Source: Anaerovoracaceae bacterium
GTDB lineage: Bacteria; Bacillota; Clostridia; Peptostreptococcales; Anaerovoracaceae
Assembly: GCA_963668245.2 (NCBI GenBank)
Contig: CAXXKB010000003.1
Span: 3,574-67,573, forward strand
Direction of reading: 5' to 3'
DNA: 64,000 nucleotides
A program made the position numbers and the translations under genes. The stretch's first letter is position 1. The number at the start of each line of letters is the position of its first letter. Below, piece after piece: positions 3,686 to 38,243 of this stretch. Under the pieces are notes generated by a model. The model had not been told where the DNA came from. It worked only from the letters and a program-made list of their open reading frames with translations, and did no database searches.

Positions 3686-3836
3686 TGTTTTGTATTCCTC
3701 CTATTGGGTATGAAAATTTTAATAGTTTCATTCTATGACTTAAATATTGAATCACTGTTTATTATTCTATTAATTAATTCATCTCTATTAATTGGGCAGC
3801 TAAAGGGACAGTATTTTTACTTTCTATAGCATCAAA

Positions 3837-5270: not shown

Positions 5271-5336
5271 ATGAAGCCTCCTTTTATATTAACCAATACA
5301 TAGGTATATAGATATAACGTTAAGGGTATTCCTTTT

Positions 5337-7190
5337 TCATTTATGATTTAAAAGTTCCAAAGTACCCTCTAAGCCCATCTTGAAAATTGCTTGCAATTTA
5401 TCTTTTGCTAACTCTTCTTGTAAACTTACAATTTGTATTCTTACTTGTTCCTTTTTATAATTATAGGACTGCATAATTTCGTCTTGTAGGTACTTATCAA
5501 TAAAAGGGATTTTTAGTTCTTTGATTGCCGTAGGAGATAGTGATAATACAGTTTCACCTTTCATTTTTTGTTTAAGCTGAACTTGACCTATCGGGCTATC
5601 TAAATAAAACTTAAGCCAATCTACATTTATAGAATCATTCACGCGGATTAAAACAAAATTTTGAGATACCAATATATTTTTTATATCTTCTTTAATTACA
5701 GCAGTCTTTATATTTTCTCCGCGAGTAGAGATTAATAAATCACCATTTTGAACAAGGTAGTTATCTATTTTAGTGTTTTCTGGTATATTACTTTGATCCA
5801 ACTTTGTAAAATCAATTTCTCCTGCAACCACATCCGAGATTTTGATTATTCGGTATGAGATTTCCCCTTTATCATGCTTACTAGGTAGATTAACTCCTCG
5901 ATTTACAGTAGCAATTTTTTGAATTTCTACGGTTTCTAAAGAATTTAATTTATCAATATCTACGATTACGTCACCCAACTCCTGGTCAGTAATCATTTGT
6001 TTTTCTTTCACATACCTCTCTACGGTGAGGCTACCTTCGATAATTTCATCTTTATTTATAAGTTTTGATTTACCAGGTATTTCGGAATCATTATTGAATA
6101 GATCCAGAATAGCGCTTATATCTTTATTAGTTAAATTTTTTTGTTTACTGTCAGAAACATAATCTTCCGCATTGATCATCATAATCTTATTTTTGCGATT
6201 ATTTCTTTTGTTTTTATTTATAATCAGCATAGCTATGGGAATAGAAGTTGTGGGAAGCAAACCGGAAGAGAGTTTGATTACAGCTTCAAATAAATCTAAT
6301 TCTATAACCCTCTCCCTTATTGTCTGCTCTTTCCCCCCTCTGAATAAAGCACCTAAAGGAACTATGAATATGCCCCTTCCATTTTCTTTTAGAGAATTAA
6401 TCCCATTACTGACAAATGCCCAATCCGCACGTGATTTGGGTACACTTCCAAACATGAATCGGTTATATGGATCTGTTTCGTAAATCTCTTCTGATATACT
6501 CTTCATTCCTATTGGTGCATCGGAATATACAACATCAAATTTTTGAAGACTACCGTCTTCTACATATTTTGGATCCCGTAAAACATCCCCAATTTTTATA
6601 GTAGTTTTTGTAGCACCGGCTAATATAACTCTAATTTGAGCAATTTCACCTGCAAGTGAATATATTTCTTGGCCAAAAATCTTTTGGTTAGGGTTAGTGG
6701 TCAGAACGGAAACGATTGCATTTCCAAATCCACAGGTAGGGTCTAAAAATGTCTCTTCTTTCTGAACTTCTATTATTTTTAATGCTAATTCATTAATGCT
6801 GGAAGGTGTTAAATGTTCACCACCAATTTTCCCTATACTATTCTCCGTGGAATGAAAATAGCTTTCCAGAAATTCGCTAGGAGTTAAATTTTTAAATATT
6901 TCTAGTGTATAGAATTGAAAGTTTTGCAAAACCGGATTGGTCATTAATTTTAAAGACCTATTCAATCTATCGAGTAAAGTAGGAAGGTGAAGGTGTAAAG
7001 CGTCCGCAGCTTCTTGTGTAGCAGCATAGAAATCACTAGGGGTATTATTTCCTGATTGTAAAAGTGTTTGAATTGTATTCGGATTATGAAACTGAACTAA
7101 TGCAATAGAAGAAATTATGGTAATGTAATCACTTGATGGAATTGAGCTACGAAGAGAATCAATAACTCCCCATAATTTTTTTGTATTCAT
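5337..7190 (-). CDS. HsdM-like N6-methyltransferase fold fused to a C-terminal HsdS-type TRD
   Basis: GEHLTP, DPTCGFG (motif I); motif IV position reads SDAPIG rather than NPPF; C-terminal ~190 aa are TRD-like (GDLLISTRG...LKIPF). Confidence 0.8.
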   Translation of the reverse strand: MNTKKLWGVIDSLRSSIPSSDYITIISSIALVQFHNPNTIQTLLQSGNNTPSDFYAATQEAADALHLHLPTLLDRLNRSLKLMTNPVLQNFQFYTLEIFKNLTPSEFLESYFHSTENSIGKIGGEHLTPSSINELALKIIEVQKEETFLDPTCGFGNAIVSVLTTNPNQKIFGQEIYSLAGEIAQIRVILAGATKTTIKIGDVLRDPKYVEDGSLQKFDVVYSDAPIGMKSISEEIYETDPYNRFMFGSVPKSRADWAFVSNGINSLKENGRGIFIVPLGALFRGGKEQTIRERVIELDLFEAVIKLSSGLLPTTSIPIAMLIINKNKRNNRKNKIMMINAEDYVSDSKQKNLTNKDISAILDLFNNDSEIPGKSKLINKDEIIEGSLTVERYVKEKQMITDQELGDVIVDIDKLNSLETVEIQKIATVNRGVNLPSKHDKGEISYRIIKISDVVAGEIDFTKLDQSNIPENTKIDNYLVQNGDLLISTRGENIKTAVIKEDIKNILVSQNFVLIRVNDSINVDWLKFYLDSPIGQVQLKQKMKGETVLSLSPTAIKELKIPFIDKYLQDEIMQSYNYKKEQVRIQIVSLQEELAKDKLQAIFKMGLEGTLELLNHK

Positions 7191-7567: not shown

Positions 7568-8011
7568 CTAATAAGAATCGTATCCGTCGTAGTCATCGTA
7601 TTCGTCATAATAATCATCTTCGTAGGTATCTTCATAGAGTGAGTCTTCCTGATCCCATTCAGCCTCTTCAAATCCATTTTCATAACCTTCTTGATAGGAG
7701 TTGTCTAAGCTATCATCACTGAATCCATAACTGTCCGTGGCGCCATCTTCATATCCAGCTTGGAATCCTTGCTGATAATCGTTAAGTCCATCATCTATAG
7801 TTTGAATATAAGTATCATCTGTATAGTCTTCCTTGTATGTAGCTTCATCATCATAGTCTTTGTTTTCGAATTCCGTAGATACCGCTGCATCCTTTTGCTG
7901 CTGATGTGATGTCCACATATCATTAATATTTAACCCAATCACCCAAATTGGGATTATTAAACTAAGTAAGCAACCTGGAAAACAGCCGCAACCTTTTAGG
8001 AAATCTTTCAT
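7568..8011 (-). CDS. Membrane-anchored, very acidic Tyr/Asp-rich hypothetical protein
   Basis: Probable start MKDFLKG at 8011 (RBS AAGGGGAG); one TM segment, then YxxGYxxG repeats. Confidence 0.7.
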   Translation of the reverse strand: MKDFLKGCGCFPGCLLSLIIPIWVIGLNINDMWTSHQQQKDAAVSTEFENKDYDDEATYKEDYTDDTYIQTIDDGLNDYQQGFQAGYEDGATDSYGFSDDSLDNSYQEGYENGFEEAEWDQEDSLYEDTYEDDYYDEYDDYDGYDSY

Positions 8012-8048
8012 ATTTATACTCCCTTTAGTAGTGTTTTTTTTATGAGAC

Positions 8049-8260
8049 TCAATAGTCATCCTGTATTTCACAACAATGAGCTGTTTTTGTACTAAATATT
8101 ATTTTTTTGAATCAAATCCTCTATGTATCTCTTCTTGCACTGTTCGAATAGCTGATATCGTTAATTTATTCATGATTGAATATATGTTTTTCCATTAAAA
8201 ACAATATTATCAGCGTTATAATCACTAAAAAATATTATCTATTGTCATCTACGTGACATT
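8049..8260 (-). pseudogene. Degenerate paralog of the 3' half of the 130-aa gene at 11184-11576
   Basis: Encodes the same C-terminus HCCEIQDDY*; nucleotide similarity to ~11187-11390, with stops. Confidence 0.7.
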
Positions 8261-8561
8261 CTTATCTTCCATACTTATTAATATAACTAATAATCTTTTC
8301 GGCGTCATATTTCAACAATTTTACATTGGATTTCTATCAAAATTTCAAAGGTTTGATAAAAATTGTTAATGATGCCATCTTTATTTTCTATCTCAGTGTA
8401 GGAGTGGATACTCAAGAGTATCATGGCCAGTTCTTTACCTTCCTGCATTCGTTTCGTACTCAGATCGCACTTAAAGTAGTAATGATTAATCTTCCAATGG
8501 ACGTGTTTTCAATTTCTCTCTTTTTAAGAATACAGGTTAGAGCTACTCATTTTATATCCAT

Positions 8562-9557
8562 TTATTCCCCGACTTGTCCATCCCCGTCTCGGTCATCCAT
8601 ATACGGATATAACCAATGATTACTATAAATTGGCATGGCGTACCCCGCATTTTTCACTTCTTGGATTGTGACTTGACCATTGCCGTTCGTATCTACTGCA
8701 GCTACATCGCCTCCTGTTGTCTGGGTGGGTGCAACGAATGCTGCCGTACCGGAAGTTTCAGAAGGTGAGCTATCCCCTCCCGTTAATCCTTGTGCGGCAT
8801 TATATTCATCCGGGTTAACGTTTTGGAACTCATCAACTACTTGATATCCATTGATCGTATATGTGTACCTATAATGATTCGGAACTTGTGTAGTTGTATC
8901 TGGGTAGGTAATGATAGCCTCAAAATTAGTGGCCCCACCTGCTTGTACGATATTTCGTTCCATATATGCCTGATCCCCATGACGGTTCAGCACACTGTCT
9001 TGTGGCGTAATGTTATAGGCATTGGCCACACCCCCTAAGGAGTCGGCTATGACATGTCCTTCGTCGAGATTTGCGTTCTCTGTGCCCGGAACTTTTGCTT
9101 CGTCATCATAATAGCGTCCTTCAGAATTGACTGGTTCAGTGGCATTATCTTGCAAAATAATTTCTGCTGCAACAACTCGAACCAGTTGACCATATTCATT
9201 TGTATAGGCCCAATATTCCCTGTCACCAAAACCGATATCAACGACAACATTTGCTGCACGATATCCTGATAATTCTCCACCGTACACTTCGATTAATGCA
9301 TAGCCATCATGAGATACAGATGATTGGGGTTCGGCACTTTCAGAATACGCTAAGGAATCGACTGATTCTGAAGGTAATTTCTCAGTTTCTTTACTTTCTT
9401 CCTTATCGGTAGCTACTGAAGCGACTTCAACGCTAGATTCGATCGAACCGGACGCCATTATTTCTTCAGTTACTGCTTCTGTTGGTGTACAAGCGCTGAG
9501 CAACAGCATACTGCTCACAGCACAAAATAACTTTCTTCCTTTTATCATGAGATTCAC
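8562..9557 (-). CDS. Lipoprotein DNA/RNA non-specific endonuclease with C-terminal EF-hand-like motif
   Basis: Lipobox LLSAC; DEGHVIADSLGG...NITPQ...LN (beta-beta-alpha-Me); DTNGNGQVT and DRDGDGQVGE. Confidence 0.8.
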   Translation of the reverse strand: MNLMIKGRKLFCAVSSMLLLSACTPTEAVTEEIMASGSIESSVEVASVATDKEESKETEKLPSESVDSLAYSESAEPQSSVSHDGYALIEVYGGELSGYRAANVVVDIGFGDREYWAYTNEYGQLVRVVAAEIILQDNATEPVNSEGRYYDDEAKVPGTENANLDEGHVIADSLGGVANAYNITPQDSVLNRHGDQAYMERNIVQAGGATNFEAIITYPDTTTQVPNHYRYTYTINGYQVVDEFQNVNPDEYNAAQGLTGGDSSPSETSGTAAFVAPTQTTGGDVAAVDTNGNGQVTIQEVKNAGYAMPIYSNHWLYPYMDDRDGDGQVGE

Positions 9558-22665: not shown

Positions 22666-23274
22666 TTAAGATAACTCTTCTAATTCCCCTTTTATCCGAT
22701 AAACGGTGTCTCTAGTCACATCTGTCTCCTCTGGGATATTCTTGATAGGCTCGCTCTTCTTCAATTTGCTGACGATTACGTTGTATGTCATGCGGTCACG
22801 CAGGTTTTTGGCATTCGCCGCATACTTCATCGGACGGCCCTTGTAGTGGCCCTTCTTCTTAGCAATCTCAATCCCCTGTCTCTGCTTACGAATAATTTCT
22901 TCCCGTTCATTTTGGGCAATCCAGGACAGTAACTGTACAACCATGTTCCGGATCAGTTTCTGCAGATTAGGATTTTCTAGGTCATGGTTTAGAATTGGCA
23001 AATTCAATACGATTAAACCAATTTCCTTCCGATCAAGCCGCTGCACCATCTGAACGATATCATCATAGTTCCGACCGAGTCAATCCAATGATTCCACAAT
23101 CAAGACATCTTTCTCTCAATAATCCCAAAGCTTTCTGTAATTCTTCCCAATCTGACATACTCTTTCCGGATATTTTCTCTTCAAAGATTTTTTTGTCCCT
23201 GCTTTTTTGAGTGCCTCAATCTGTCGGTCCAGATTCTGGTCTGTGGTAGACACTCGCGCATATTCAATTTTCAT
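22666..23274 (-). pseudogene. Frameshifted serine resolvase
   Basis: MKIEYARVSTTDQNLDRQ at 23274, then frameshifts and stops; the C-terminal part is ORF 22666-23049. Confidence 0.85.
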
Positions 23275-23464
23275 CTGTTTTTTCCTTTTCCCGCACTTGA
23301 TTTATTCGACACTTATAATCTGCATTAAGAATCCAATAAAATCAACATTTTACACGTGACGGTTTTAGGTACACTCTAAACCAGCATTTTTTGTAAGTAT
23401 TAAATTTGATAATAAGGATCGTAGTATTCACCAAAAAAATTTAGATGTAGAATCAAAATCACTC

Positions 23465-23516
23465 AAACCAAAGTAGGCCCGTTACGCAAGTTATTGTAAC
23501 GGGCCTACTTTGGTTT
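23465..23516. terminator. 21-bp perfect inverted repeat (terminator of the array/gene transcript)
   Basis: AAACCAAAGTAGGCCCGTTAC-10 nt-GTAACGGGCCTACTTTGGTTT. Confidence 0.7.
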
Positions 23517-23549
23517 AGTGGCATAATTTAATGCATTTATCTTACTAAC

Positions 23550-23585
23550 TGAATTGTCCCCTTACAAATCGGGGTAGTCTTTAAT
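23550..23585 (-). CRISPR. Detached degenerate CRISPR repeat (trailer-type)
   Basis: 23556-23585 is identical to 30 of the 36 repeat nt; only the 6 nt at the transcript 3' end diverge. Confidence 0.9.
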
Positions 23586-24526
23586 TATGGAATAATCCAA
23601 CCAGCTCCTAAATCTTGGTTATTTGTGCCGTTTCCAGTACCTACAGTATAAGTAGAACCATCTGCGCTTTGTTCTATCCATGTATCATTTCGCACTCCAT
23701 CTTCGGTTGTAGCAGACCATCCGTACTCTATAGTTCCGCTAGACGAATAAGTTGGCGTGCTTGAACTAGAATTAGAAGAATAACTGCTAGAACTGTCTGG
23801 TTCAACATAAGTATATCCCGTATCGTAATTAGAATCGTCGTAATTATTTGACGAACTGTAATTTGCAGAATCGCTATTAGACTCTTGGATGTATTGTTGT
23901 TCAGCTACACTTGCCGCTTGAGCTACGACTGCAGCTTGTGCTTCAACTGCAACTTGAGCTTCTGCTTCTACTTTTGCCTGTGCTTCGTCTAATTGTTTAA
24001 TTTTTTCTTCATATCGTTTTAAAATTTTATTTGTTTTATTATTAAATTGTTCTTTTTCATCACCAAAGTAAACTAGACCTTCTAAACTCAAAACTTTTTC
24101 TTTTAATGTGCTTAAAATATTAATTTTTTCGTTTAGGGAGTCTTTTGTTTCAATTTCCAGATCCTTTGTTGTATTGTCTAACAAAACCTTAATGTTTTCA
24201 TTTTTAAATAATTCTTTTGACTTAGTAATATAACTTTCATAGATTTTGATAATTTTTTCGTCTTTTTCATTTCCCTTTTTGTATCGACTGTATTCTGAAA
24301 CCATGGATTTAAAATAATCTAATCTTTTAGCTTCATCTTTTTCATTATTAAATGAAGAATAATCACTTTGAATATCTTTACTTTCAGAAGCAATATTTTC
24401 ATTATAGATTCTTTCTTCTTCTTTATTTTCCATTGCAATTGCTGTAAAACTACTTGAGGCCAACAACAGTACTGTTCCTAAAAGTAGTAAAATTTTATTT
24501 TTCTTTAACAAGGGCTCCACCTCCAT
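23585..24526 (-). CDS. Secreted or membrane-anchored coiled-coil, Ser-rich hypothetical protein located between CRISPR repeats
   Basis: Signal peptide (KKNKILLLLGTVLLLASSSFTAIA), coiled coil, AQA repeats, Ser/Tyr-rich tail; likely TTG start after GGAGGTG; upstream TATAAT. Confidence 0.8.
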   Translation of the reverse strand: MEVEPLLKKNKILLLLGTVLLLASSSFTAIAMENKEEERIYNENIASESKDIQSDYSSFNNEKDEAKRLDYFKSMVSEYSRYKKGNEKDEKIIKIYESYITKSKELFKNENIKVLLDNTTKDLEIETKDSLNEKINILSTLKEKVLSLEGLVYFGDEKEQFNNKTNKILKRYEEKIKQLDEAQAKVEAEAQVAVEAQAAVVAQAASVAEQQYIQESNSDSANYSSSNNYDDSNYDTGYTYVEPDSSSSYSSNSSSSTPTYSSSGTIEYGWSATTEDGVRNDTWIEQSADGSTYTVGTGNGTNNQDLGAGWIIP

Positions 24527-24596
24527 ATTTTTTGTTATTAATTTAACATTATATTGTTGATAAAAAGGGAATGATATTTGTTATATTCCTCCCTTA

Positions 24597-25294
24597 GTTA
24601 CCGTCCCCTTACAAATCGGGGTAGTCTTTAATATGATGGAGGCTTCTCGATCGCCAATCATCGTTACCGTCCCCTTACAAATCGGGGTAGTCTTTAATTT
24701 AAATTCCTTGATTTCTCCGGTTGAGAGGGTTACCGTCCCCTTACAAATCGGGGTAGTCTTTAATTTCAATTATTCGACTTTGACTACGAATTCGGTTACC
24801 GTCCCCTTACAAATCGGGGTAGTCTTTAATAATTACGTAGAAGGTACGCTGAGGCTTTATCGTTACCGTCCCCTTACAAATCGGGGTAGTCTTTAATCAC
24901 GTTTCAAATGGTGACGCCCATGCGTTTGTTACCGTCCCCTTACAAATCGGGGTAGTCTTTAATCGCGTCGAGGACTATATAGGCAAAGGCACCGTTACCG
25001 TCCCCTTACAAATCGGGGTAGTCTTTAATCTTTATCCAAATACGCAGATTGTCCTAGCAGTTACCGTCCCCTTACAAATCGGGGTAGTCTTTAATGAATA
25101 GAAGTATATGGGCTCTGCATGGCTTGTTACCGTCCCCTTACAAATCGGGGTAGTCTTTAATGATGGATCTTTGCGATCTACATCAAAACGGGTTACCGTC
25201 CCCTTACAAATCGGGGTAGTCTTTAATCCAAGCCGTCAAAAAAGAGCATTGGAAAGCGGTTACCGTCCCCTTACAAATCGGGGTAGTCTTTAAT
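24597..25294 (-). CRISPR. CRISPR array, type VI-A (Cas13a)-like: 11 identical 36-nt repeats, 10 spacers of 30-31 nt
   Basis: Repeats start at 24597, 24663, 24729, 24795, 24862, 24928, 24994, 25060, 25126, 25192, 25259. The minus-strand repeat ATTAAAGACTACCCCGATTTGTAAGGGGACGGTAAC has the GAC-x-ACCCC...GGGGAC...AAC layout of Cas13a repeats. Confidence 0.96.
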
Positions 25295-25420
25295 TATTCA
25301 GCCGAAAAAAATTGCTAAATCAACTGATTGAGATGATTTTATTGTCTAAAAATCTGCCCATGCATAAGTAATACTTCAATAAGTTGGCAGTTTCTTGGAC
25401 AATAGGTTTATCGAAAGCAA
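25295..25420 (-). promoter_or_regulatory. Putative CRISPR leader
   Basis: AT-rich and non-coding, on the side opposite the degenerate repeat. Confidence 0.5.
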
Positions 25421-25642
25421 TTAGTATTACTATTATAACATTCAACCTATGCAGCTGGACATTCATATATTATATTCAAAGAGATTCCCATAAGCTTATC
25501 ATACATATTAAATTTTGTGGCCCTCTAGTATCAAGGTACGATTCTATTATTCCAGATCAGATGAAATGAAGTGGAAGGAGTAGCGTCTTTACAGCGTTTC
25601 CCCTTCTATTTCACTATAACTCAAGACTACTTATACATCGGT

Positions 25643-25843
25643 CTATTCATCATCTGGAACCTCGCATATGATCATTCGTGCATACATCTCAAATATTGCA
25701 GCCTCGACAATTTCTGCGGGTGTTTCAAAAAATTCATACTCCAAAGCCAGATGCGTTTGCAACGCTTCAATCATCTTCGTGTTACTGCCGTCTAATTTGA
25801 GGAACATATTGGATTCTAATGCGTCATTCGACATACTGATCAC
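25643..25843 (-). CDS. Small protein, possibly ribbon-helix-helix (copy 1)
   Basis: RBS present; near-identical paralog at 37233-37493. Confidence 0.55.
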   Translation of the reverse strand: MISMSNDALESNMFLKLDGSNTKMIEALQTHLALEYEFFETPAEIVEAAIFEMYARMIICEVPDDE

Positions 25844-25961
25844 CTTCCCTTTCTACCTAAAATATCCGCAGAATCTTCCGGGTGATTTATTTATGAACAG
25901 AAAAGTTTATAAATATTCCCTGCCTTTTTTTTAATATCCACGCGTGTTCGCTTTACAAAAA

Positions 25962-25975
25962 CAAACATACGTTCT
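25962..25975 (+). promoter_or_regulatory. LexA (Cheo) box overlapping the yolD-like promoter
   Basis: CAAACATACGTTCT between TTTACA and TATAAT. Confidence 0.6.
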
Positions 25976-26037
25976 TATAATAGGAGTATAGACTTTGTAA
26001 GCTGTCCTAATTCATGACATGAAAGAATGAGTGGAAG

Positions 26038-26592
26038 GTGAATATCATGCTAAAAGAAACAAGAAATCGAACAGAAAAGGTATTTGAAGCGTACAATGAC
26101 TACCACGATAGAGGTATGGTGAAGTGGCTGACCGCGTTCGCAATGGAAGAACTAGCACAGTCTATTTCTATCGGAAAAGAGGAGGCTATGAAGGATATTC
26201 CAATCCTGCCTCAGATGAGCTCTTTCGAAATCGATACAGCTTTAGCGGAGTCCATTCAAAAAAATCGTCTCGTATCGATACAATTGAACCAAAAGGACCG
26301 CTTCGGGCGACAATCAGAGTCTATCGTAGGGCAATTCAGAGGCTATCTCGCGGACAACAAGCTTTTGATTGATACGCAATGGATCTTACTGGAGAGCATT
26401 CGGAACGTACACATTTTGTATGAGCAGAAATGGTCTGAGATCCACGTTTTTACAGCAGATACAAAAGAAAAAAACGAGCTGAATTCCACGCGAGAGTTTC
26501 GACATAGTGTTTGTGTTGAAAACCAAGAAGCTTTTGACACTGCTATCACTTGGGTGGAAGACTTCAATCAGTGCACAGAATGGTTTGAATAA
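26038..26592 (+). CDS. YolD-like protein (copy 1)
   Basis: YHDRGMVKW motif; PQMS..EI...L; SOS box upstream. Confidence 0.75.
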   Translation: MNIMLKETRNRTEKVFEAYNDYHDRGMVKWLTAFAMEELAQSISIGKEEAMKDIPILPQMSSFEIDTALAESIQKNRLVSIQLNQKDRFGRQSESIVGQFRGYLADNKLLIDTQWILLESIRNVHILYEQKWSEIHVFTADTKEKNELNSTREFRHSVCVENQEAFDTAITWVEDFNQCTEWFE

Positions 26593-27097: not shown

Positions 27098-27805
27098 TCA
27101 ACTTTTCTTTTGATAATAATGGTCACGGCTTGCATCTTTGACATTGACCGGTACGCGGTTATAGACTGCTCCTAAGACATGAGCGTTCACCCGCTCTAAG
27201 GCTTCGGAGGCTTTCAAAGTATCCATCTTGGTCGAAACCCCGTGCTGGACAACAACGATGGTTCCATCCGCACGCCCAGCCACGATCTGCGCATCTGCAA
27301 AACCCAAAAGGGGCGGCGTATCATAGATAACAAGGTCGAATTGATCCTCAAATTCCTGTTCCAGATGGATCATCCGTCTACTGGAAAGTAATTCCGCTGG
27401 GTTTGGTGGCGTAGGGCCACCCGTCAAGACCGACAAATCAGCCAGTCTCGTGTCTTGCACGTAATCTTGAACGACACCTGTCGGATTGTTCAACAAGTCC
27501 GTCAGGCCATGGATATTGGCTAATTTAAAATTCTCATGGACAGTCGGTCGTCTGAAATCACAGTCTGCCAACAAGACACGCATTCCTTGTTGGGCGATTG
27601 TGATGGCCAAATTGATGGCGACGGTTGACTTGCCGACGTTATTGCTGGCTGAAGTAATCGCAAGCGAACGCAGTTGTTGGTCCACCATTGAAAAATGGAT
27701 GTTCGTCCGCAGTACACGGAACTGTTCCGAGATGGCAGCAGACGGCAACGCCATGGTGATTGCAGCGCTCTGCTGAAATGGTTGATTATTTTTTCTTCTG
27801 AACAT
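27098..27805 (-). CDS. CpsD/CapB-family tyrosine-protein kinase (orphan)
   Basis: Probable start MFRRK at 27805; SEQFRVLRTNI, VGKST, DCDFRRP, DTPP. Confidence 0.88.
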   Translation of the reverse strand: MFRRKNNQPFQQSAAITMALPSAAISEQFRVLRTNIHFSMVDQQLRSLAITSASNNVGKSTVAINLAITIAQQGMRVLLADCDFRRPTVHENFKLANIHGLTDLLNNPTGVVQDYVQDTRLADLSVLTGGPTPPNPAELLSSRRMIHLEQEFEDQFDLVIYDTPPLLGFADAQIVAGRADGTIVVVQHGVSTKMDTLKASEALERVNAHVLGAVYNRVPVNVKDASRDHYYQKKS

Positions 27806-28343
27806 GACCTTAGCCTCCGATTCGATCTTTTGCCGTTTCCAGCTCATGTACTGGGTGATCGCTGTGAATTCTTCTTTTTTTATCTCTGATATCGCCGATG
27901 CGGTTGCCGGCTTTGGATTACTCGATGCCCAAATACAGAGCTTTTTCGGACACTTCCACCAGCCGCTTCGATGCATGATTGCACAAAGTCATTGCTCTCC
28001 ATCGTAGTCAAAACCGGCTGATGAAACTGCGCAATTTTTTAGTTCTTTACGGACTGCTATGTATTTTTCTATTACTTCCCGCTGCATGAGAGCTTTTGCA
28101 ATTTTTGGTTTTTTGCCATAATATCGTTCTCCCTATGACAAATACAATCATTATTTTGTAAAACATAATAATTACGATTTTCAAACGAAAATTTATCATA
28201 CTGTAGATGGATTGTCAACATAAACAAACCTGGAATTACATTCATGTGCGGGAAATTGTGAAATAAAATGTATAAGAAAATAAATAAACCTGCTACACAT
28301 TGACCTTACGCGCCTTCAGATAGGAGTCTATGCAATGCTAACC

Positions 28344-28484: not shown

Positions 28485-28796
28485 CTATCCTTTATTCCCT
28501 CTCATAGTCCCCACCACTTGGTTTAAATGCAACAGGACTTTCTCCAGAAATGCCTGCTCGGACAAAACACAAACGGAATGCCCTTCTTGCTGCAAAGCTT
28601 CCACCTTCTGCATTTTCAGACTCCTCGGATCTTCTTGAAAGAGATTGGTATTCGCCTTTCCTACAACCAAGATTGTGGTATCTTTGGTAACCGCTGCTTG
28701 GGGTTTTCCTCCTAATGCAGTGACTAATGCCTGCGCTTGTTTCCGCGACAACATATCCAATTTACCCGTAAATACAATTTTTTCGCCCAGAAACAT
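28485..28796 (-). CDS. Stand-alone BRCT-domain protein (copy 1)
   Basis: GEKIVFTGKL..LSRKQAQALVTALGG...VTKDTTILVVG...LSEQAF. Confidence 0.85.
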   Translation of the reverse strand: MFLGEKIVFTGKLDMLSRKQAQALVTALGGKPQAAVTKDTTILVVGKANTNLFQEDPRSLKMQKVEALQQEGHSVCVLSEQAFLEKVLLHLNQVVGTMRGNKG

Positions 28797-32065: not shown

Positions 32066-34474
32066 TTAGTACATTTCATCTTTTACATTAAATGATTGGC
32101 CTTTTAGGTTGTATTTCAAAAATTTGTATAATATATAATTTTCCTTGTCAGTCTCGTGTGTAGATAAAATAATCTGTTTGTTTGGAAAATCGTTCCTAAG
32201 CACTTCTATAAATGATGCAATATTAATATCATCCATAGTTTGTACTGGATCATCAATTAGAATAAACCCTATATCATCTGTTTGTTCTGAAATGTATCGC
32301 TTATTCATTGCAAACAAAAAGGATAGAACAAACCCTGATAATTGCCCTGAGCTGAATGTATTGAGTATGTCATGTTTTGCATCACCATTCGAAACAAATC
32401 TCATTTCATCTTTATTAATAAATACACCTAACCCATTTTGATAATCCTGCAATATTTTCCCTGTGTATATTAGAAGAGGTACACGCAACTTTTTTAGAAC
32501 TAAATTTTTATATTCCTCTATTGCAATATTATAGAAGTTCTTTAGTTCATTAAAATTATTTCTGATTATTTCAAGTTTCTCCAATTTGATGATTAATGTC
32601 TTCACATCATTTTTTATCTGATCAATCTCATTATTTTTCAGAAGACTATTTTGATATCTTACAAACATAATTTTATTATCTGTGGCAGTTTTGTCTTTTA
32701 AATTTGATTGTTCAATTGATAATAGGTCAGCATTTCCCTTAAATATATTGTCGTAATTATAGAGTTTTAAATTCTCTGTGAAGTTCTTGTTTTCATAATC
32801 AGAAAGCTTCGACTCGATAATTCTTTTCAGTTCAATAATTTTGCTTATCTCATCTAGTTCTCTCCACGAATTAATATCTCCAACAAATCCATGGATTTTA
32901 GAAATATCATTCATTTTCTTTTCTGACTTAAGAAGCACGGAATATTCACTTGCAATGGTACGAATTTGTTCAATTTCGTTGTCATCTTTTCGCTTAAACA
33001 ATTTTTCTATTGAATCAACTATTGAGTTAGCATAATTAGATAGCATCGCTTTCTTGTCTTTTATTTCTACAGAAATATTATCTTGTGAACTTTTCAACTG
33101 AGTACTTAAAGAACTATATGCTGCTTCCAATAGCTCAGGATTGTCATAAGGGCTATTGCAATAAGGACACTGATTTGAATTTGCATTATTTCCTCTAACT
33201 GAATGTAGCTTTTCTCTCGCTTGTATCAGTTCATTTGTCTTCTTTTGATTCTCTCCAAGTTGGGAATTTAGTACTTTTATTTCGTTAACAAGATTATCTA
33301 CATCACCAATTACTACCGCCTCAGGGATTATTCCTATTTCTTGCAATGAAATCATATCTTCTTTTTTATATTTTGAAATATCCAATTCACTGCGGAAGAA
33401 ATCACTGTATTTAAAAACATCCAGCACTCGGTTCAATTTAGCAATTTCATCTTCAACCTGTTTATGATTAAACTTATTGCCATTCATAAATTCATTGAAT
33501 TTTGTGTAACTTAAGATTGCTTCATTATCATTTGAGCACATCATTATTTCATTATTTTTTAGTAACTTCCTGTAATCAGCTAAATCTTGATATAGATTAT
33601 AGATGCCATTTATTTCATCAATATATGCTGACAGTTGGTTCTCTGAAATGTCCTTTAACACAAACTTCTCAAGATCCCATTTTTTCACTACACAATTTTG
33701 AGGATAAACAAGTAACGGAGTATAATTTGTTTCTTTATATGCTCCTCCAGCATCATCTAACTTCATTTTCAAATTAGATATCTTAATATCTAACTCACCT
33801 TTTGTAGCTTTTATTGCATCGTTAATTAAAACTCCATTTTTTGCCTTAGAGGCTCCTGTAAGGCTTTTTTCTATTTTATCAATCTTCGCTTGTATAGTTT
33901 CTGTTTGAAGAAGTTTAGTCATGCTGTCTTTTCTACTAGAAATACTATTTTTTAGAAAATGAACGGATTCCGCTTGAGAAACGTAATAGTAGATATTAAA
34001 ATGCTCTTTTATGTAGTTTAAATTCTCAAATTCTGAAATGTCTCCCTTCCAATCTATATTACCATTTAAAAATTCATCAAATTTATTTGTATCAACTGGT
34101 CCTTCAATACAAGTGAATTTAATAGCTGTATCAAAGGTTAGCTTTGTAAGACTATTATCTATCTCTGCAATAATAGTTATCTTTTCATGTCTTTCATTTA
34201 TCAATGTTAATATCAAATATCCGCATTCATCTGATGTATTTAACAGAATATTTTTACCAAGATTGGTTCTTCCATCTTCAATATCTGAATTTAAACGTGT
34301 TATTCTTTTAGTAAAAATCAACTCAACGGCATCGAAAAATGTTGTTTTCCCAAATCCATTAGGTCCTGATAAAATAGTAGGATTTGTATCATGAACAAAA
34401 TAAAATTCATAGAATTTCTTATAGTCAAAACACTTAAAATTGCGTACTTTTAGACTTTCAATTTTATAACTCAC
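32066..34474 (-). CDS. lmuB: SMC/Rad50-like ABC ATPase of a Lamassu/ABC-3C system
   Basis: GPNGFGKT, CPYC zinc hook, FSSGQ signature, ILIDDPVQTMD. Confidence 0.85.
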   Translation of the reverse strand: MSYKIESLKVRNFKCFDYKKFYEFYFVHDTNPTILSGPNGFGKTTFFDAVELIFTKRITRLNSDIEDGRTNLGKNILLNTSDECGYLILTLINERHEKITIIAEIDNSLTKLTFDTAIKFTCIEGPVDTNKFDEFLNGNIDWKGDISEFENLNYIKEHFNIYYYVSQAESVHFLKNSISSRKDSMTKLLQTETIQAKIDKIEKSLTGASKAKNGVLINDAIKATKGELDIKISNLKMKLDDAGGAYKETNYTPLLVYPQNCVVKKWDLEKFVLKDISENQLSAYIDEINGIYNLYQDLADYRKLLKNNEIMMCSNDNEAILSYTKFNEFMNGNKFNHKQVEDEIAKLNRVLDVFKYSDFFRSELDISKYKKEDMISLQEIGIIPEAVVIGDVDNLVNEIKVLNSQLGENQKKTNELIQAREKLHSVRGNNANSNQCPYCNSPYDNPELLEAAYSSLSTQLKSSQDNISVEIKDKKAMLSNYANSIVDSIEKLFKRKDDNEIEQIRTIASEYSVLLKSEKKMNDISKIHGFVGDINSWRELDEISKIIELKRIIESKLSDYENKNFTENLKLYNYDNIFKGNADLLSIEQSNLKDKTATDNKIMFVRYQNSLLKNNEIDQIKNDVKTLIIKLEKLEIIRNNFNELKNFYNIAIEEYKNLVLKKLRVPLLIYTGKILQDYQNGLGVFINKDEMRFVSNGDAKHDILNTFSSGQLSGFVLSFLFAMNKRYISEQTDDIGFILIDDPVQTMDDINIASFIEVLRNDFPNKQIILSTHETDKENYILYKFLKYNLKGQSFNVKDEMY

Positions 34475-35271
34475 TATTTTACCCCTTTCAACATTTTTTT
34501 GATTGCTTTTTCTAGATTATCCTCATCAATTTTAAAATCATCTTCTAGTAGAAGTATCTCCTCAATGTTAGTTTCATTATTATTTAAAATTTGATGGTAC
34601 TTGATTTGCTTATCTATTAAAGCCCGTTCAACCTGTTTTTCTATAGGCTCAGGTGCTAATTCAGTCTTAAACTTATACTGTAAAAATGGAAGTTTAGCAA
34701 ACATACGAATTACCAGGCCATATGTGCTATCTAATTCTTTACCTTCAACCAACTTGAAATAACTATCCTCATTATCTACAATTTGACATAGTGCATCTAC
34801 TAATGTTCTGTCACTAAACTGCGATAGAGAATTTTCCAATTGCTCAATTTGTTTTTGCGTATAAGGCAAAACATATCTTTTGAAATAGTTGGGTGATTCT
34901 TCTATTGAGTAAACAGCATTTCTATAGTTATTCAAATTTTCTATATTTTCAAATAATAACAGATAAATTGCCGAGGTATTCTTATCTATCTGACTAGCTT
35001 CTTTTGCGTTACCAAATGATTCTATTATTTGTTGCTTAAACGAAATATTGTCCGAATCTACGCTTTTTGAGTATTTATTTTCAAGCTGTTCTAATGCATT
35101 AATTACTTCTACCTCATCGTTTTCAAATCCCCTACAATCTATGGCGTTAATAATGAAATAATTAGCGATTTCTGTGTGTTCATGCTTATAGAATTCTAAA
35201 TTTATTCTGCCAATATCGGTTAGTTTAACGTAATTGTATGTTCTAAATATTCTATCAATCAAGTCATTCAT
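34474..35271 (-). CDS. lmuC: ABC-3C middle component (LmuC-like)
   Basis: Overlaps both neighbours; IEESPNYFKRYVLPY motif. Confidence 0.7.
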   Translation of the reverse strand: MNDLIDRIFRTYNYVKLTDIGRINLEFYKHEHTEIANYFIINAIDCRGFENDEVEVINALEQLENKYSKSVDSDNISFKQQIIESFGNAKEASQIDKNTSAIYLLLFENIENLNNYRNAVYSIEESPNYFKRYVLPYTQKQIEQLENSLSQFSDRTLVDALCQIVDNEDSYFKLVEGKELDSTYGLVIRMFAKLPFLQYKFKTELAPEPIEKQVERALIDKQIKYHQILNNNETNIEEILLLEDDFKIDEDNLEKAIKKMLKGVK

Positions 35272-36841
35272 TATCTATCAGTTCCCCCTCTGCTATATCT
35301 TTACTTATTATTCTCATGACTTTTGATTTGTTGTAATTAATTTTTTGTCGTTCAGCAGAATCCGAAGTTATATCTACAATTTCATTTAATTCATTAGTCC
35401 CCATAACATTGAAGTTATTTTGATTGTATCTATAGTCAGGCTTATTCAATCTATCAGTAATTAAGACATCACTTTCGTAAATAAAAAATTTATCTGCATT
35501 ATTCATGCTTAATTCTTTATTCAATTGGGCTTCAAAATCTTCAATATACTCATTTTCATCCAAAGTTAGTCGATAAATCTCTTCATTTTTTTCAGCTAAA
35601 ATAACATTTGAATCATAATATTTCAAACATTCTATTTTCTTCAAAAATCTAATAAATAAATTGTTAACGACAGTATCTCTTGGCAAATTATTCTTTGGAG
35701 TTCTTAGGAGCAGCTTATATAAAAAGTCTTTTTTGTCTTCATAGCTTTTATTGCAAATCTCTATCATCTGACGATATAAATTACACTCATCAAAAGTGGT
35801 GCAACTCTCACAATCACTACATACACAATCAGTTCGGATACTACTAGGATATTTTTTATATGTATCCTTTATCAACTGAAGCAACTCATAATACTGATAT
35901 TCCGTTGTATTACTTTCAGCCTTATGATCTTTAATTATCAGATCAAGTATTTTGGAAAACTCCACTTTACATGAATTTTTTTTACTGCAGGTATTATGAG
36001 CACTAATCACATCTTTTGAAAAAATGACGATCTTATCATAAATAAACTGATAATACGTTTGATTATAGTATATGCTCCCCTGAGGATTAATCTTCTTTAA
36101 TATCTTCTCAATAATTTCGCATGAATTTTGAATGACACTTGCAGGTGTTGTAAATTGTTCACCATATACATTCCATATATCTGAATCAGACTTACCATTC
36201 AACAACCCTTTATATAGAGATAATTTATTCTTTGCGCATGCAACGGCTTTAATCACATTCTCTTTTTCATTATTGCCATCACAAATTGAACATAATATTT
36301 TGTATAAAGAACCTTTCGGCGTATTGTTGTTAATTTTACTAATTAGGATATACTTTTCTTCTGTTTGCTTATACAAAGCATCGCTTCTTTTTATTTTTCC
36401 CCCAAGTGTGGGGCCTAATGGTGTTATCTCATCACTAAATTCTTTTTCTGTTTTAACTTCCTTGTTTAGATCAGATAACAGACAGTCAATACTCTGTACA
36501 GTTTTCTCTATGAAATCAAAAGGAATTGTAGCTTCGGGAACAATATGAAAATATGCATTTTCAGCTGCATACTGTAAGGCAGATATAATAAAGCATGTTT
36601 TATCATCATTGTCTAAACTGACATTACCTGCTTTAACTTGATGTAAACTTATGTAATTATCCCCTTTTATTATAGAAAAATCCTCTTCACCTTCGATTCC
36701 TAATTTATATAAAATGATTTCTTCCTGATTACCTAATTCAATAACTTGCCATATATGATTTAAAGCTATATATAAAGCTATATGCCGTTGATACTCAAAC
36801 CCTTCCCAAGCTGGAATGGCACTAATAGGTGCGATTATCAT
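35264..36841 (-). CDS. lmuA: Lamassu/ABC-3C effector with N-terminal Cap4-like PD-(D/E)xK nuclease
   Basis: SAIPAWEGFEYQ, EGEEDF, LHQVK; first gene of the three-gene operon. Confidence 0.75.
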   Translation of the reverse strand: MIIAPISAIPAWEGFEYQRHIALYIALNHIWQVIELGNQEEIILYKLGIEGEEDFSIIKGDNYISLHQVKAGNVSLDNDDKTCFIISALQYAAENAYFHIVPEATIPFDFIEKTVQSIDCLLSDLNKEVKTEKEFSDEITPLGPTLGGKIKRSDALYKQTEEKYILISKINNNTPKGSLYKILCSICDGNNEKENVIKAVACAKNKLSLYKGLLNGKSDSDIWNVYGEQFTTPASVIQNSCEIIEKILKKINPQGSIYYNQTYYQFIYDKIVIFSKDVISAHNTCSKKNSCKVEFSKILDLIIKDHKAESNTTEYQYYELLQLIKDTYKKYPSSIRTDCVCSDCESCTTFDECNLYRQMIEICNKSYEDKKDFLYKLLLRTPKNNLPRDTVVNNLFIRFLKKIECLKYYDSNVILAEKNEEIYRLTLDENEYIEDFEAQLNKELSMNNADKFFIYESDVLITDRLNKPDYRYNQNNFNVMGTNELNEIVDITSDSAERQKINYNKSKVMRIISKDIAEGELIDNE

Positions 36842-37232: not shown

Positions 37233-37493
37233 TCAACACCTGCTGTGTAAAAATAAGTCCGCTTCAGATGGAGTGAGGTCTGAATTTGGCTGGTTTGATA
37301 GAGTATGGCACCGCGCTCCGTTATTTCGTGCATACATCTCAAAAATTGCAGATTCGACAATATCCGCGGGGGTTTCAAAAAATTCATACTCCAAAGCTAA
37401 GTGCGTTTGCAACGCTTCAATCATCTTAGTAGTGCTCCCATCTAATTTGAGAAACATACTGGATTCTAATGCGTCATTCGACATACCGATCAC
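37233..37493 (-). CDS. Small protein, possibly RHH (copy 2)
   Basis: Paralog of 25643-25843 with a different C-terminus. Confidence 0.55.
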   Translation of the reverse strand: MIGMSNDALESSMFLKLDGSTTKMIEALQTHLALEYEFFETPADIVESAIFEMYARNNGARCHTLSNQPNSDLTPSEADLFLHSRC

Positions 37494-37613
37494 CTTCCCT
37501 TTCTACCTAAAATATCCGTAGAATCTTCCAGATGATTGATTTATGAACAGAAAATTTTAGAAAAATTCCCTGCCTTTCTTTTTAAATATCCACGCGTGTT
37601 CGCTTTACAAGAA

Positions 37614-37627
37614 CAAACATGTGTTCG
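37614..37627 (+). promoter_or_regulatory. LexA box in the yolD-like promoter (copy 2)
   Basis: CAAACATGTGTTCG directly before TATAAT. Confidence 0.65.
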
Positions 37628-37688
37628 TATAATGGGGTATAGAATCTGTAAGCAGTCCTAATTCATGACATGAAAGAATGAGTGGAAG

Positions 37689-38243
37689 GTGAATATCATG
37701 CTAAAAGAACCAAGAAAGCGAACAGAGAAGGTATTTGAAGAGTACAATGACTACCACGATAGGGGTATGGTAAAGTGGCTGACCGCATTCGCTATGGAGG
37801 AATTAGCAAAGTCTATTTCGATAGGAAAAGAGGAGGCGATGAAGGATATTCCCATCCTGCCTCAGATGAGCCCTTTAGAAATCGATATAGCTTTAGCGGA
37901 ATCCATTCAAAAAAACCGTCTCGTATCGATACAATTGAACCAAAAAGATCGTTTCGGGCGTCAAACTGAGTCGATAGTAGGTCATTTCACAGGCTACCTC
38001 ACGGATAATAAGCTTTTGATTGATAATGAATGGATTTTAGCGGAGAGTATTCGAAACGTGCGCATTTTGCATGATGAGAAATGGTCCAAGACCCACGTCT
38101 TTTCAGCAGATACAAAAGAAAATAACGGACTGAATTCCACGCGAAAGTTTCCAAATACTGTTTGTATTGAAGACCAAGAAGCTTTTGACACTGATATCAC
38201 CTGGGTAGAAGACTTCAATCAATGCACAGAATGGTTTGAGTAA
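37689..38243 (+). CDS. YolD-like protein (copy 2)
   Basis: Close paralog of 26038-26592. Confidence 0.75.
   Translation: MNIMLKEPRKRTEKVFEEYNDYHDRGMVKWLTAFAMEELAKSISIGKEEAMKDIPILPQMSPLEIDIALAESIQKNRLVSIQLNQKDRFGRQTESIVGHFTGYLTDNKLLIDNEWILAESIRNVRILHDEKWSKTHVFSADTKENNGLNSTRKFPNTVCIEDQEAFDTDITWVEDFNQCTEWFE

Follow-up and report, generated by a model that had tools for sequence, protein, structure and literature searches.

In a CRISPR array that we assign, on its repeat and leader, to the type III-A (Csm) family, the place of the oldest spacer is taken by DNA holding a complete gene for a secreted protein. The window (the whole 64-kb stretch of DNA analysed) is that of a conjugative plasmid, with RepA_N, a MobL relaxase, a coupling protein and ArdC. 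A Pfam and NCBIfam scan found no cas genes among the ORFs of the 64-kb window, and the array is therefore an orphan. The account that we favor, and hold to be somewhat probable, is that the oldest 'spacer' of this orphan Csm/Cas10-type array is a captured 1-kb piece of mobile-element DNA which was inserted at the repeat borders, has been kept by selection, and is expressed by read-through from the array followed by Cas6 release.

The array (24597–25294, minus strand) consists of 11 copies of the 36-nt repeat GTTACCGTCCCCTTACAAATCGGGGTAGTCTTTAAT (ATTAAAGACTACCCCGATTTGTAAGGGGACGGTAAC in the crRNA sense) separated by 10 unique spacers of 30–31 nt. All of the repeats are identical (0 mismatches, with a chance expectation of 0.00 in 100 shuffles), and folding of the repeat gives a GC stem of 4 bp closed by a 9-nt loop. 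The leader occupies 25295–25440 on the same strand, with a conserved core (25295–25358) adjoining the first repeat; an extended −10 sequence, TGTTATAAT, can be read within it at 25432–25440, and a promoter scan of the leader region returned a sole, weak site at 25534–25505. The copy at 24597–24632, which the earlier note had numbered repeat 1, is the last full repeat and not the first, the leader lying from 25295 upward. Neither the one-genome-per-species set nor IMG/VR contains a match to the exact repeat core, a scan of genomes with a degenerate repeat pattern returned Fusobacteriaceae VI-A arrays and chance matches, and searches of PLSDB and the phage collection gave no match to the array-plus-gene region or to the spacers.

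At the far end is a degenerate terminal repeat (23550–23585, minus strand) in the same orientation, matching the array repeat at 31 of 36 positions. Read in the crRNA sense (the minus strand of the window), it agrees with the array repeat throughout the first 30 nt, a stretch that includes the hairpin as well as the inferred Cas6 cleavage position (28/29), and departs from it in the last six (AATTCA vs GGTAAC). This terminal repeat is identical in three k141 metagenome contigs other than the window contig (L001, L085 and L086), and the leader of the first of these is 97.5% identical to that of the window. Next comes a strong hairpin in the trailer, exceeding 20 bp and leading into a U-run (23460–23520, minus strand; −55.1 kcal/mol over 146 nt, z = −7.6), which is conserved in the same three contigs and accompanied by a separate terminator-like call at 23481–23464, and which is likely to terminate the transcript of array and gene.

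Between the last full repeat and the terminal repeat lie exactly 1011 bp (23586–24596, minus strand), whose ends coincide exactly with the repeat borders and whose gene runs in the crRNA sense. The earlier note had described two repeats in the same orientation enclosing 1011 bp, with an intact gene of about 310 codons, its RBS and a TATAAT in the slot of the last spacer, next to a repeat of the degenerate trailer type, and all of this is confirmed. The ORF (23585–24526, minus strand) could encode 313 aa from an ATG at 24526, but the TTG at 24511, located 8 nt after GGAGG within the RBS GGAGGTGGAG (24516–24525), is the likelier start and gives a gene at 23585–24511 encoding 308 aa. The TAA stop codon (23587–23585) overlaps the terminal repeat by 1 nt, its last A being the first base of the degenerate repeat, as had been noticed. 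The TATAAT (24548–24553, minus strand) is a −10-like hexamer without a good −35, and the promoter scan made no call there. Directly after the last full repeat is a hairpin with a 7+4 bp stem and then UUUUU (24562–24595, minus strand), containing the RBS-like sequence GGGAGGAA; the previously noted RBS-like sequence following this repeat (TAAGGGAGGAA) is indeed present with no start codon after it. The 30 nt that follow the last full repeat have no viral match. The insert contains a single ORF, which is not a transposase gene, and no inverted ends were seen on reading the junctions.

The protein is organised as a signal peptide, a long helical region, a disordered linker rich in S, N and Y, and a small C-terminal beta domain (AlphaFold2 model). 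It belongs to no Pfam, NCBIfam or PHROG family, has no tblastn match in phages and no relatives among viral contigs, and Foldseek returned nothing at E ≤ 0.001 in PDB or BFVD. Its homologues form a family of 126 representative clusters, with relatives on plasmids of Carnobacterium and Enterococcus. One homologue (66%), on the contig L002, stands outside any array and has its own strong promoter and terminator. Nucleotides 36–1011 of the insert align to this locus with 75% identity; the native promoter (TTGACA-16-TAAAAT) and the terminator are both missing from the insert, the TATAAT has TATAAA as its equivalent in L002, and the hairpin at 24562–24595 has no counterpart in the alignment. This hairpin is possibly an attenuator or a remnant of a donor terminator. 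Our checks did not demonstrate phage status for L002, and we therefore call it only a mobile-element-like contig. Rfam has nothing in either the window locus or L002.

The type assignment comes from contigs on which the same repeat flanks csm genes. In L079 the order is CRISPR1, cas6, cas10/csm1, csm2, csm3, csm4, csm5, csm6 and CRISPR2, with cas10/csm1 scoring 689.7 bits (cut-off 170) and every NCBIfam equivalog above its cut-off. Two L079 repeats, found in CRISPR1 and CRISPR2, have 0 mismatches to the window repeat, the same linkage between repeat and csm operon is present in L082 and L068, and a leader core of 40–100 nt is common to the window and the CRISPR1 and CRISPR2 leaders of the csm locus (L079, L082 and L083). 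Two spacers match the phage L076 and are antisense to its genes, as targeting of RNA requires. The last 8 nt of the repeats (ACGGTAAC, ACGAGAAC or ACGATAAC) also look like a type III tag and unlike the CTAAAAC ending of VI-A repeats, a resemblance judged partly against the Staphylococcus epidermidis repeat. These features argue strongly against the premise of the earlier note that the array is served by Cas13a, and a type VI-A array in which the gene replaced cas13a, or yields an mRNA processed by Cas13a, seems to us extremely improbable. The window has no cas13a (no ORF exceeds 907 aa), nor does any contig with this repeat, and the slot once suspected of having held cas13a is simply the trailer end of a csm-type array. 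There is some resemblance to type VI-A nonetheless. A genuine Cas13a locus (L040; 382.8 bits vs a cut-off of 150) has two genes between its repeats, and although its repeat ATTGAGACTACCCCAATATTGAAGGGGACTAAAAC differs from that of the window, about 25 of 36 positions agree; the genuine Cas13a repeats recovered (ATTGAGACTACCCC..GGGGACTAAAAC) are about 69% alike to the window repeat, which explains the earlier misreading.

The gene is a constant part of this locus. Both junctions are identical in four independent assemblies (the window, L001, L085 and L086), and Logan contigs from three further runs cover 23559–24632, that is, both repeats with the gene between them, and on these grounds we reject an assembly artefact. 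The spacers upstream of the gene vary from none (L086) to one (L001 and L085) to ten (the window), and none is shared. Leader, repeat, gene and terminal repeat form a stable core to which ordinary spacers are added at the leader end. A comparison of the embedded copies (dS 0.08–0.10, dN/dS 0.13–0.21) shows purifying selection on the coding sequence during its time in the array.

Related arrays hold comparable inserts, likewise in the sense orientation, and the junction is therefore not to be dismissed as a one-off rearrangement. CRISPR2 of the csm locus contains a 682-nt lipoprotein insert conserved in L069–71 and L079–84, the lipoprotein being indexed in 240 blocks of the collection, and L007 carries a second lipoprotein, 36% identical to the first, in an insert that is colinear end to end with the phage-plasmid L077. 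L004, L006 and L007 each harbor an embedded gene for a 90-aa membrane protein, whose upstream junction takes two forms (L004/L006 vs L007), and in L007 a repeat directly adjoins the RBS of this gene. The array edge in L072 has a fragment with lysis genes (a holin and a truncated amidase). PLSDB contains no relatives of the membrane protein or the lipoprotein. Every insert seen is sense, a bias underlain by about seven cases, and several derive from the phage-plasmid group that the same arrays target. Some inserts begin or end within genes and are plainly random fragments (in L007 and L079 this applies to the 5′ parts, and the further cases are L004 and L020).

We suggest that such DNA would enter by the rare insertion of long fragments at repeat borders, and our favored guess is mis-integration of a long fragment by Cas1-Cas2. 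The contigs read showed neither cas1 nor cas2, and the repeats flanking the inserts are not pairwise identical, unlike the expectation for a fresh Cas1-Cas2 duplication. Entry through recombination between a spacer and its protospacer is disfavored, the working spacers being antisense to phage genes and the inserts sense. Once in place, the gene would owe most of its transcription to the leader promoter, as the 3′ portion of the pre-crRNA, with the hairpin after the last full repeat perhaps damping read-through and the gene's own weak −10 contributing, and transcription of both array and gene would end at the trailer hairpin. Where the host supplies a cognate Cas6, each flanking repeat would be cut 8 nt short of its end, releasing a monocistronic mRNA that has ACGGTAAC as its 5′ tag and a repeat hairpin at its 3′ end. 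With Cas6 replacing Cas13a as the nuclease that cuts the mRNA ends, the earlier proposal that repeat processing shapes this message is plausible. The gene may be retained as its exported product serves the plasmid or the host, for example by excluding related elements. From the metatranscriptome runs came just four contigs within the gene, all at low depth, and DNA carry-over could account for them.

The evidence on expression can also be read to mean that the insert is an accident unrelated to the array, with its own weak promoter, repeats that play no part, and a trailer end that is merely a harmless site. We regard this as a real possibility, if a less probable one. The hairpin and T-run part the array from the gene and could stop read-through, and since the TATAAT conserved with L002 follows them, the gene may be expressed on its own; some of the inserts elsewhere are indeed random fragments, and the plasmid array has no cas genes beside it. 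Against an independent passenger, the insert lacks a strong native promoter and terminator, and the independent capture of homologous lipoprotein genes on two occasions, together with the sense orientation of all of the inserts, would be unlikely for neutral junk. The low dN/dS likewise says that the protein matters, though coupling to the array does not follow from it.

Repeat recombination offers another route, in which a repeat-flanked gene moves among arrays, or is gained and lost, in the manner of an integron cassette. The earlier note had raised such a cargo cassette, and the part of that idea that survives is the recurrence of similar inserts in related arrays: the same membrane protein gene sits in two array contexts with different upstream junctions, and the array family does undergo repeat-repeat deletion and contains hybrid repeats (L069 vs L079). 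What does not survive is mobility, and we consider this reading unlikely. The gene is kept in all four alleles, and across these and the contigs from other runs none joins the last full repeat to the trailer without the gene and there is no excised form; no integrase lies beside the array and the nearby resolvase is broken; and the insert boundaries vary from case to case, cutting through neighboring genes, so that there is no defined cassette. It is less likely still that the detached repeat and its adjoining sequence act as a guide through which a Csm complex controls the embedded gene as a toxin or sensor. Stand-alone regulatory repeats are known, and the cr-like RNAs and CreTA lie beside cas operons and pair with a promoter or mRNA, repressing cas or toxin genes (10.1101/2023.03.03.530964; 10.1101/2024.01.05.574328); the repeat abutting an RBS in L007 would suit such a module. 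In the window, however, no nearby cas genes are present to be regulated, the RNA that follows the repeat has the sense of the gene, so that pairing with the gene's mRNA is impossible, no complementarity was noticed, and a secreted helical protein of 308 aa (as modeled by AlphaFold2) is not toxin-like.

Capture at repeat borders followed by read-through and Cas6 release remains the account that we prefer, and it may be that CRISPR arrays take up whole genes from time to time and perhaps express them. A broader version, that type III and type VI arrays are occasional sites of capture and expression, is speculative and on present evidence rather doubtful: kilobase fragments of targeted elements would enter at repeat borders, possibly through the adaptation integrase, be transcribed with the pre-crRNA, be cut out as mRNAs by the repeat endonuclease, and be kept if they encode exported proteins of the exclusion type, adding an innate layer to adaptive defence. 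Arrays are treated as lists of short spacers, and longer content is usually dismissed as a broken array or an IS element. In this locus a complete gene lies exactly in a spacer position and is conserved under selection despite spacer turnover, and sister arrays hold genes of phages that they themselves target, with one lipoprotein family captured on two separate occasions. If the adaptation machinery made the capture, Cas1-Cas2 can insert kilobase-sized DNA in nature, and if array expression and Cas6 release are true, arrays can double as operons. Array finders that split at such inserts would misreport array ends and miss the embedded genes.

Among known systems, the closest are the type III-A arrays, including orphan plasmid arrays that use host cas genes in trans. 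The window array shares their 36-nt repeats with a GC hairpin, 30–31 nt spacers, leader, degenerate terminal repeat and polar growth at the leader end, and differs in having no cas genes in 64 kb and a 1011-bp gene fragment in place of an oldest spacer of about 30 nt. Prophages integrate into CRISPR repeats in Streptococcus pyogenes, and these too are foreign DNA within an array bounded by repeat sequence; the inserts described here are fragments of 0.45–1 kb without an integrase, and the related phages L076–L078 have no repeat-like site in the regions read. Integron cassettes resemble the locus in that genes poor in promoters, each with a structured repeat at its border, share an upstream promoter and all face the same way. 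Here, the bounds are CRISPR repeats and not attC or attI, there is no IntI or other tyrosine integrase near the array (the only recombinase being a broken serine resolvase), boundaries are variable and run through neighboring genes, and no evidence of excision was found. With CreTA and cr-like RNAs the locus shares a degenerate repeat off the regular array and an adjoining protein gene, and differs in a transcript that is sense to the gene and in the lack of a cas operon. We found no description in the open-access literature of genes other than those of IS elements replacing spacers, and the 'long spacers' found in arrays are usually IS elements or transposons (Kupczok et al. 2015, PMC4524480). 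The insert is like these in being an over-long stretch between two repeats, yet it has no transposase, terminal inverted repeats or target duplication, its ends fall at the repeat borders, it is under purifying selection, and its content is an ordinary exported-protein gene, with phage fragments as the equivalent in sister arrays.

The array consists of eleven perfect 36-nt repeats and ten unique spacers of 30–31 nt (24597–25294, minus strand; chance expectation none). Its leader occupies 25295 and upward, and transcription follows the minus strand. A twelfth, degenerate copy at 23550–23585 has the same orientation, its first 30 nt being identical to the repeat and its last 6 different; in folding it retains the 4-bp GC stem of the normal repeat, and behind it come a trailer hairpin (more than 20 bp, z = -7.6) and a U-tail. 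Between this copy and the last full repeat (24597–24632) lie 1011 bp (23586–24596) that hold a single intact minus-strand ORF (23585..24526), which probably starts with a TTG at 24511, 8 nt behind a GGAGG, and ends in a TAA whose last A is the first base of the degenerate repeat. All structural details of the earlier note – repeats in the same orientation, a complete gene between them, a stop codon fused to the repeat, and an RBS-like stretch without a start codon behind the last full repeat – are found in the sequence. The last of these lies inside a hairpin followed by five U, which folding predicts for the first 35 nt past that repeat and which has no counterpart in L002, a contig with a free-standing homolog of the gene.

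The earlier note took this for a Cas13a (type VI-A) array, a reading that a likeness to Leptotrichia repeats suggests at first and that we reject. The repeat occurs with zero mismatches in both arrays of L079, a contig with the order CRISPR1 (10 repeats), cas6, cas10/csm1, csm2, csm3, csm4, csm5, csm6, CRISPR2, all on one strand, and the 40–100 nt of leader adjoining the first repeat are common to the window and both of these arrays. The seven Cas/Csm proteins of L079 all exceed NCBIfam equivalog cut-offs. L079 and L082, which also has a complete csm operon, were reached by searching with an embedded lipoprotein, and L068, likewise complete, by using translations of the repeats to look for spurious ORFs that had been called across arrays. 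Genuine Cas13a loci, found in a degenerate scan, have the repeat ATTGAGACTACCCC...GGGGACTAAAAC, with about 25 of 36 positions equal to the window repeat (manual count); it is similar enough to mislead, yet a different repeat. ORF, Pfam and NCBIfam scans found no cas genes in the window, where the largest ORF is at most 907 aa. Because an identical repeat and a related leader lie beside a csm operon, and the window has no cas gene, we classify the array as type III-A, without cas genes; we regard its type and orientation and the exact borders of the insert as established.

The homolog on L002 (P0003, 66% identical) is outside any array; about 105 nt upstream of it lies a strong promoter (TTGACA-16-TAAAAT), and an intrinsic terminator stands immediately 3′ of its stop codon. 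Nucleotides 36–1011 of the insert align with this locus (75%), a span that begins about 55 nt ahead of the start codon and ends with the stop codon, so the insert has lost its native promoter and terminator. The promoter-like TATAAT pointed out in the earlier note is present, but it has no -35 and is the sole promoter remnant. Elsewhere on L002, about 1 kb without an ORF (7820–8960) lies behind a promoter-like TTGACA..TATAAT and resembles a large non-coding RNA, with no Rfam match at gathering score. The embedded protein carries a signal peptide, and its predicted structure comprises a long, confidently modelled helical region (residues 5–214), then a disordered S/N/Y-rich stretch and a small three-stranded C-terminal domain. 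It has no family in Pfam, NCBIfam or PHROG, and fold searches with the model gave no match at E <= 0.001; its own family comprises 126 representative clusters, with plasmid relatives annotated as hypothetical in Carnobacterium sp. 17-4 (pCAR50, 41%) and Enterococcus faecium (30%).

Three metagenome contigs of the same locus (L001, L085 and L086) have the leader, gene, degenerate repeat and trailer of the window with identical junctions, and the gene with both flanking repeats is also covered by Logan contigs from other runs. None of their spacers is common to the window: L086 has one full repeat and zero ordinary spacers, and L001 and L085 each combine two repeats with a single spacer, against eleven and ten in the window. 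Some 190 nt beyond the terminal repeat (near 23370), in the stretch that separates the trailer from a broken resolvase gene, the sequences of the four alleles diverge. On the simplest reading, leader, repeat, gene and terminal repeat would be an old core, and separate lineages would have gained their spacers afterwards at the leader end; alternatively, spacers may have been lost through repeat recombination. The window copy differs from the other three with dS 0.08–0.10 and dN/dS 0.13–0.21, so the protein has been constrained while lying between the repeats, and the module is stable and under selection.

The window represents a conjugative plasmid; the host is Lactobacillales-like, and the samples are of wastewater type. 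It carries a RepA_N initiator, MobL relaxase, type IV coupling protein, lysozyme/NlpC-P60 protein and ArdC, and its near relatives in PLSDB are only Enterococcus, Carnobacterium and Listeria plasmids, the match being restricted to a resolvase region. It is rich in defence genes, with type I restriction-modification (970–7190) and, 7 kb from the array, a three-gene ABC-3C system (32066–36841; SMC/AAA ATPase of 802 aa, Middle Component 1 and a CTD1-domain protein). A serine resolvase gene a short way behind the trailer (22666–23280, minus strand) is broken into ORFs of 52 and 127 aa; intact resolvases of another kind closely follow the trailers of contigs L004, L006, L083 and L084. A segment comprising the 66-aa ORF upstream of the leader, a divergent 184-aa ORF (PHROG 16307, function not annotated) and their intergenic region is duplicated (37326–38243 and 25643–26592, ~90% identity), and the copy at 37326–38243 has neither leader nor repeats behind it. 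Apparent gene remnants are the ATPase domain of an eps-family tyrosine autokinase without its membrane partner (27098–27976) and a lone BRCT domain similar to the C-terminus of a DNA polymerase III epsilon-like protein (28485–28796). Spacers 25162–25191 and 25228–25258 are matched by contigs in several of the same sequencing runs that then run into unrelated sequence, so their targets likely co-occur with the plasmid in samples.

Other contigs of this repeat family also have inserts, in crRNA sense in every case (about seven cases). CRISPR2 of the csm locus holds a 682-nt insert, a 152-aa lipoprotein gene behind the 3′-terminal 38 codons of a different gene; L069–71 and L079–84 keep both this insert and the repeats on the trailer side, with variable leader-side spacers, and the lipoprotein is indexed in 240 blocks of the collection. 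The 770-nt insert of L007 encodes a lipoprotein just 36% identical to that one and is colinear end to end (72.8%) with phage-plasmid L077, starting within a NikA-like gene and ending 3 nt past the lipoprotein stop codon. A gene for a 90-aa two-helix membrane protein is embedded behind a truncated ORF in L004 and L006, and in L007 a repeat directly adjoins its RBS. In L072 and L073 a holin gene and the 5′ part of an endolysin gene (Amidase_2, first ~116 codons) run directly into the contig's first repeat, which opens a long array and is not separated from them by any recognisable leader; this fragment (L072 1–1557) shares 81% identity with phage L076. Among the ordinary spacers of these arrays, two match the same phage, antisense to its genes, so the arrays hold spacers and kilobase fragments from one phage group. 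On the long contigs examined, the lipoprotein family occurs in siphophage-like genomes, flanked by a Rep3 (and NikA-like) module on one side and a convergent lysis cassette on the other, with no repeats nearby. We regard the phage origin of the sister inserts, and the recurrence of such inserts, as established. By rough estimate, two random 0.7-kb pieces of a 40-kb genome would capture the same gene family with a chance of about 1–2%, and it is improbable that neutral junk would include one family two times over, taken from diverged phages and oriented alike.

Downstream of the trailer of the csm-type array with the lipoprotein insert, the cargo differs between samples (L080 and L081), one having a lanthipeptide-type kinase/cyclase, ABC exporter and SMODS nucleotidyltransferase, the other a reverse transcriptase (RVT_1), TIR-domain protein, resolvase and DDE transposase; this locus appears to lie in a defence island whose contents shuffle. 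A genuine type VI-A locus in a Fusobacteriaceae MAG (L040, JBOFOQ010000034.1, 457–3198, sense-oriented) has two VI-A repeats enclosing AdoMet decarboxylase and MFS transporter genes (1840 nt), followed by a spacer, a degenerate repeat, a 180-aa ORF, cas13a (382.8 bits) and cas1, and in L020 (3537–5106) two Cas13a-type repeats enclose 1498 nt with partly truncated genes. In both loci the insert runs in the direction of the repeats.

We propose that the pre-crRNA transcript continues through the gene, which would form its last part, and terminates at the trailer hairpin. Where the host has a csm operon, its Cas6 would be expected to cleave each of the flanking repeats 8 nt short of the 3′ end, the predicted site being intact in the degenerate repeat because its first 30 nt are kept, and to release an mRNA carrying a 3′ repeat hairpin. 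The exported products may be retained as helpful to the carrier, perhaps via exclusion of related phages or plasmids; for the lipoprotein, which matches no known exclusion family, the basis for such a role is its position in the phage maintenance region.

The chief alternative is a passenger gene driven by a promoter of its own; in its favour, read-through from the array may be halted by the hairpin and T-run that follow the last full repeat. The repeat-flanked cassette of the earlier note, gained or lost by repeat recombination, finds little support: every allele keeps the gene, and insert borders vary between cases. As to the route of capture, the exact repeat borders argue for an integrase-type or spacer-templated event; on the other side, the repeats flanking inserts lack pairwise identity, and no cas1-cas2 was seen on the contigs read. 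Entry by recombination through working spacers is disfavoured, since it predicts antisense inserts and those seen are sense.

A CreTA-like regulatory unit does not fit, as the RNA corresponds to the sense strand of the gene and the neighbourhood lacks cas genes. We found no description in the open-access literature of ordinary genes replacing spacers with conserved junctions, and an earlier report may exist elsewhere. Orphan and plasmid-borne arrays, degenerate terminal repeats and IS-type 'long spacers' are already known (PMC4524480); the arrangement in the window differs from the IS-type 'long spacers' in that an ordinary gene stands in the place of a spacer, with conserved junctions.
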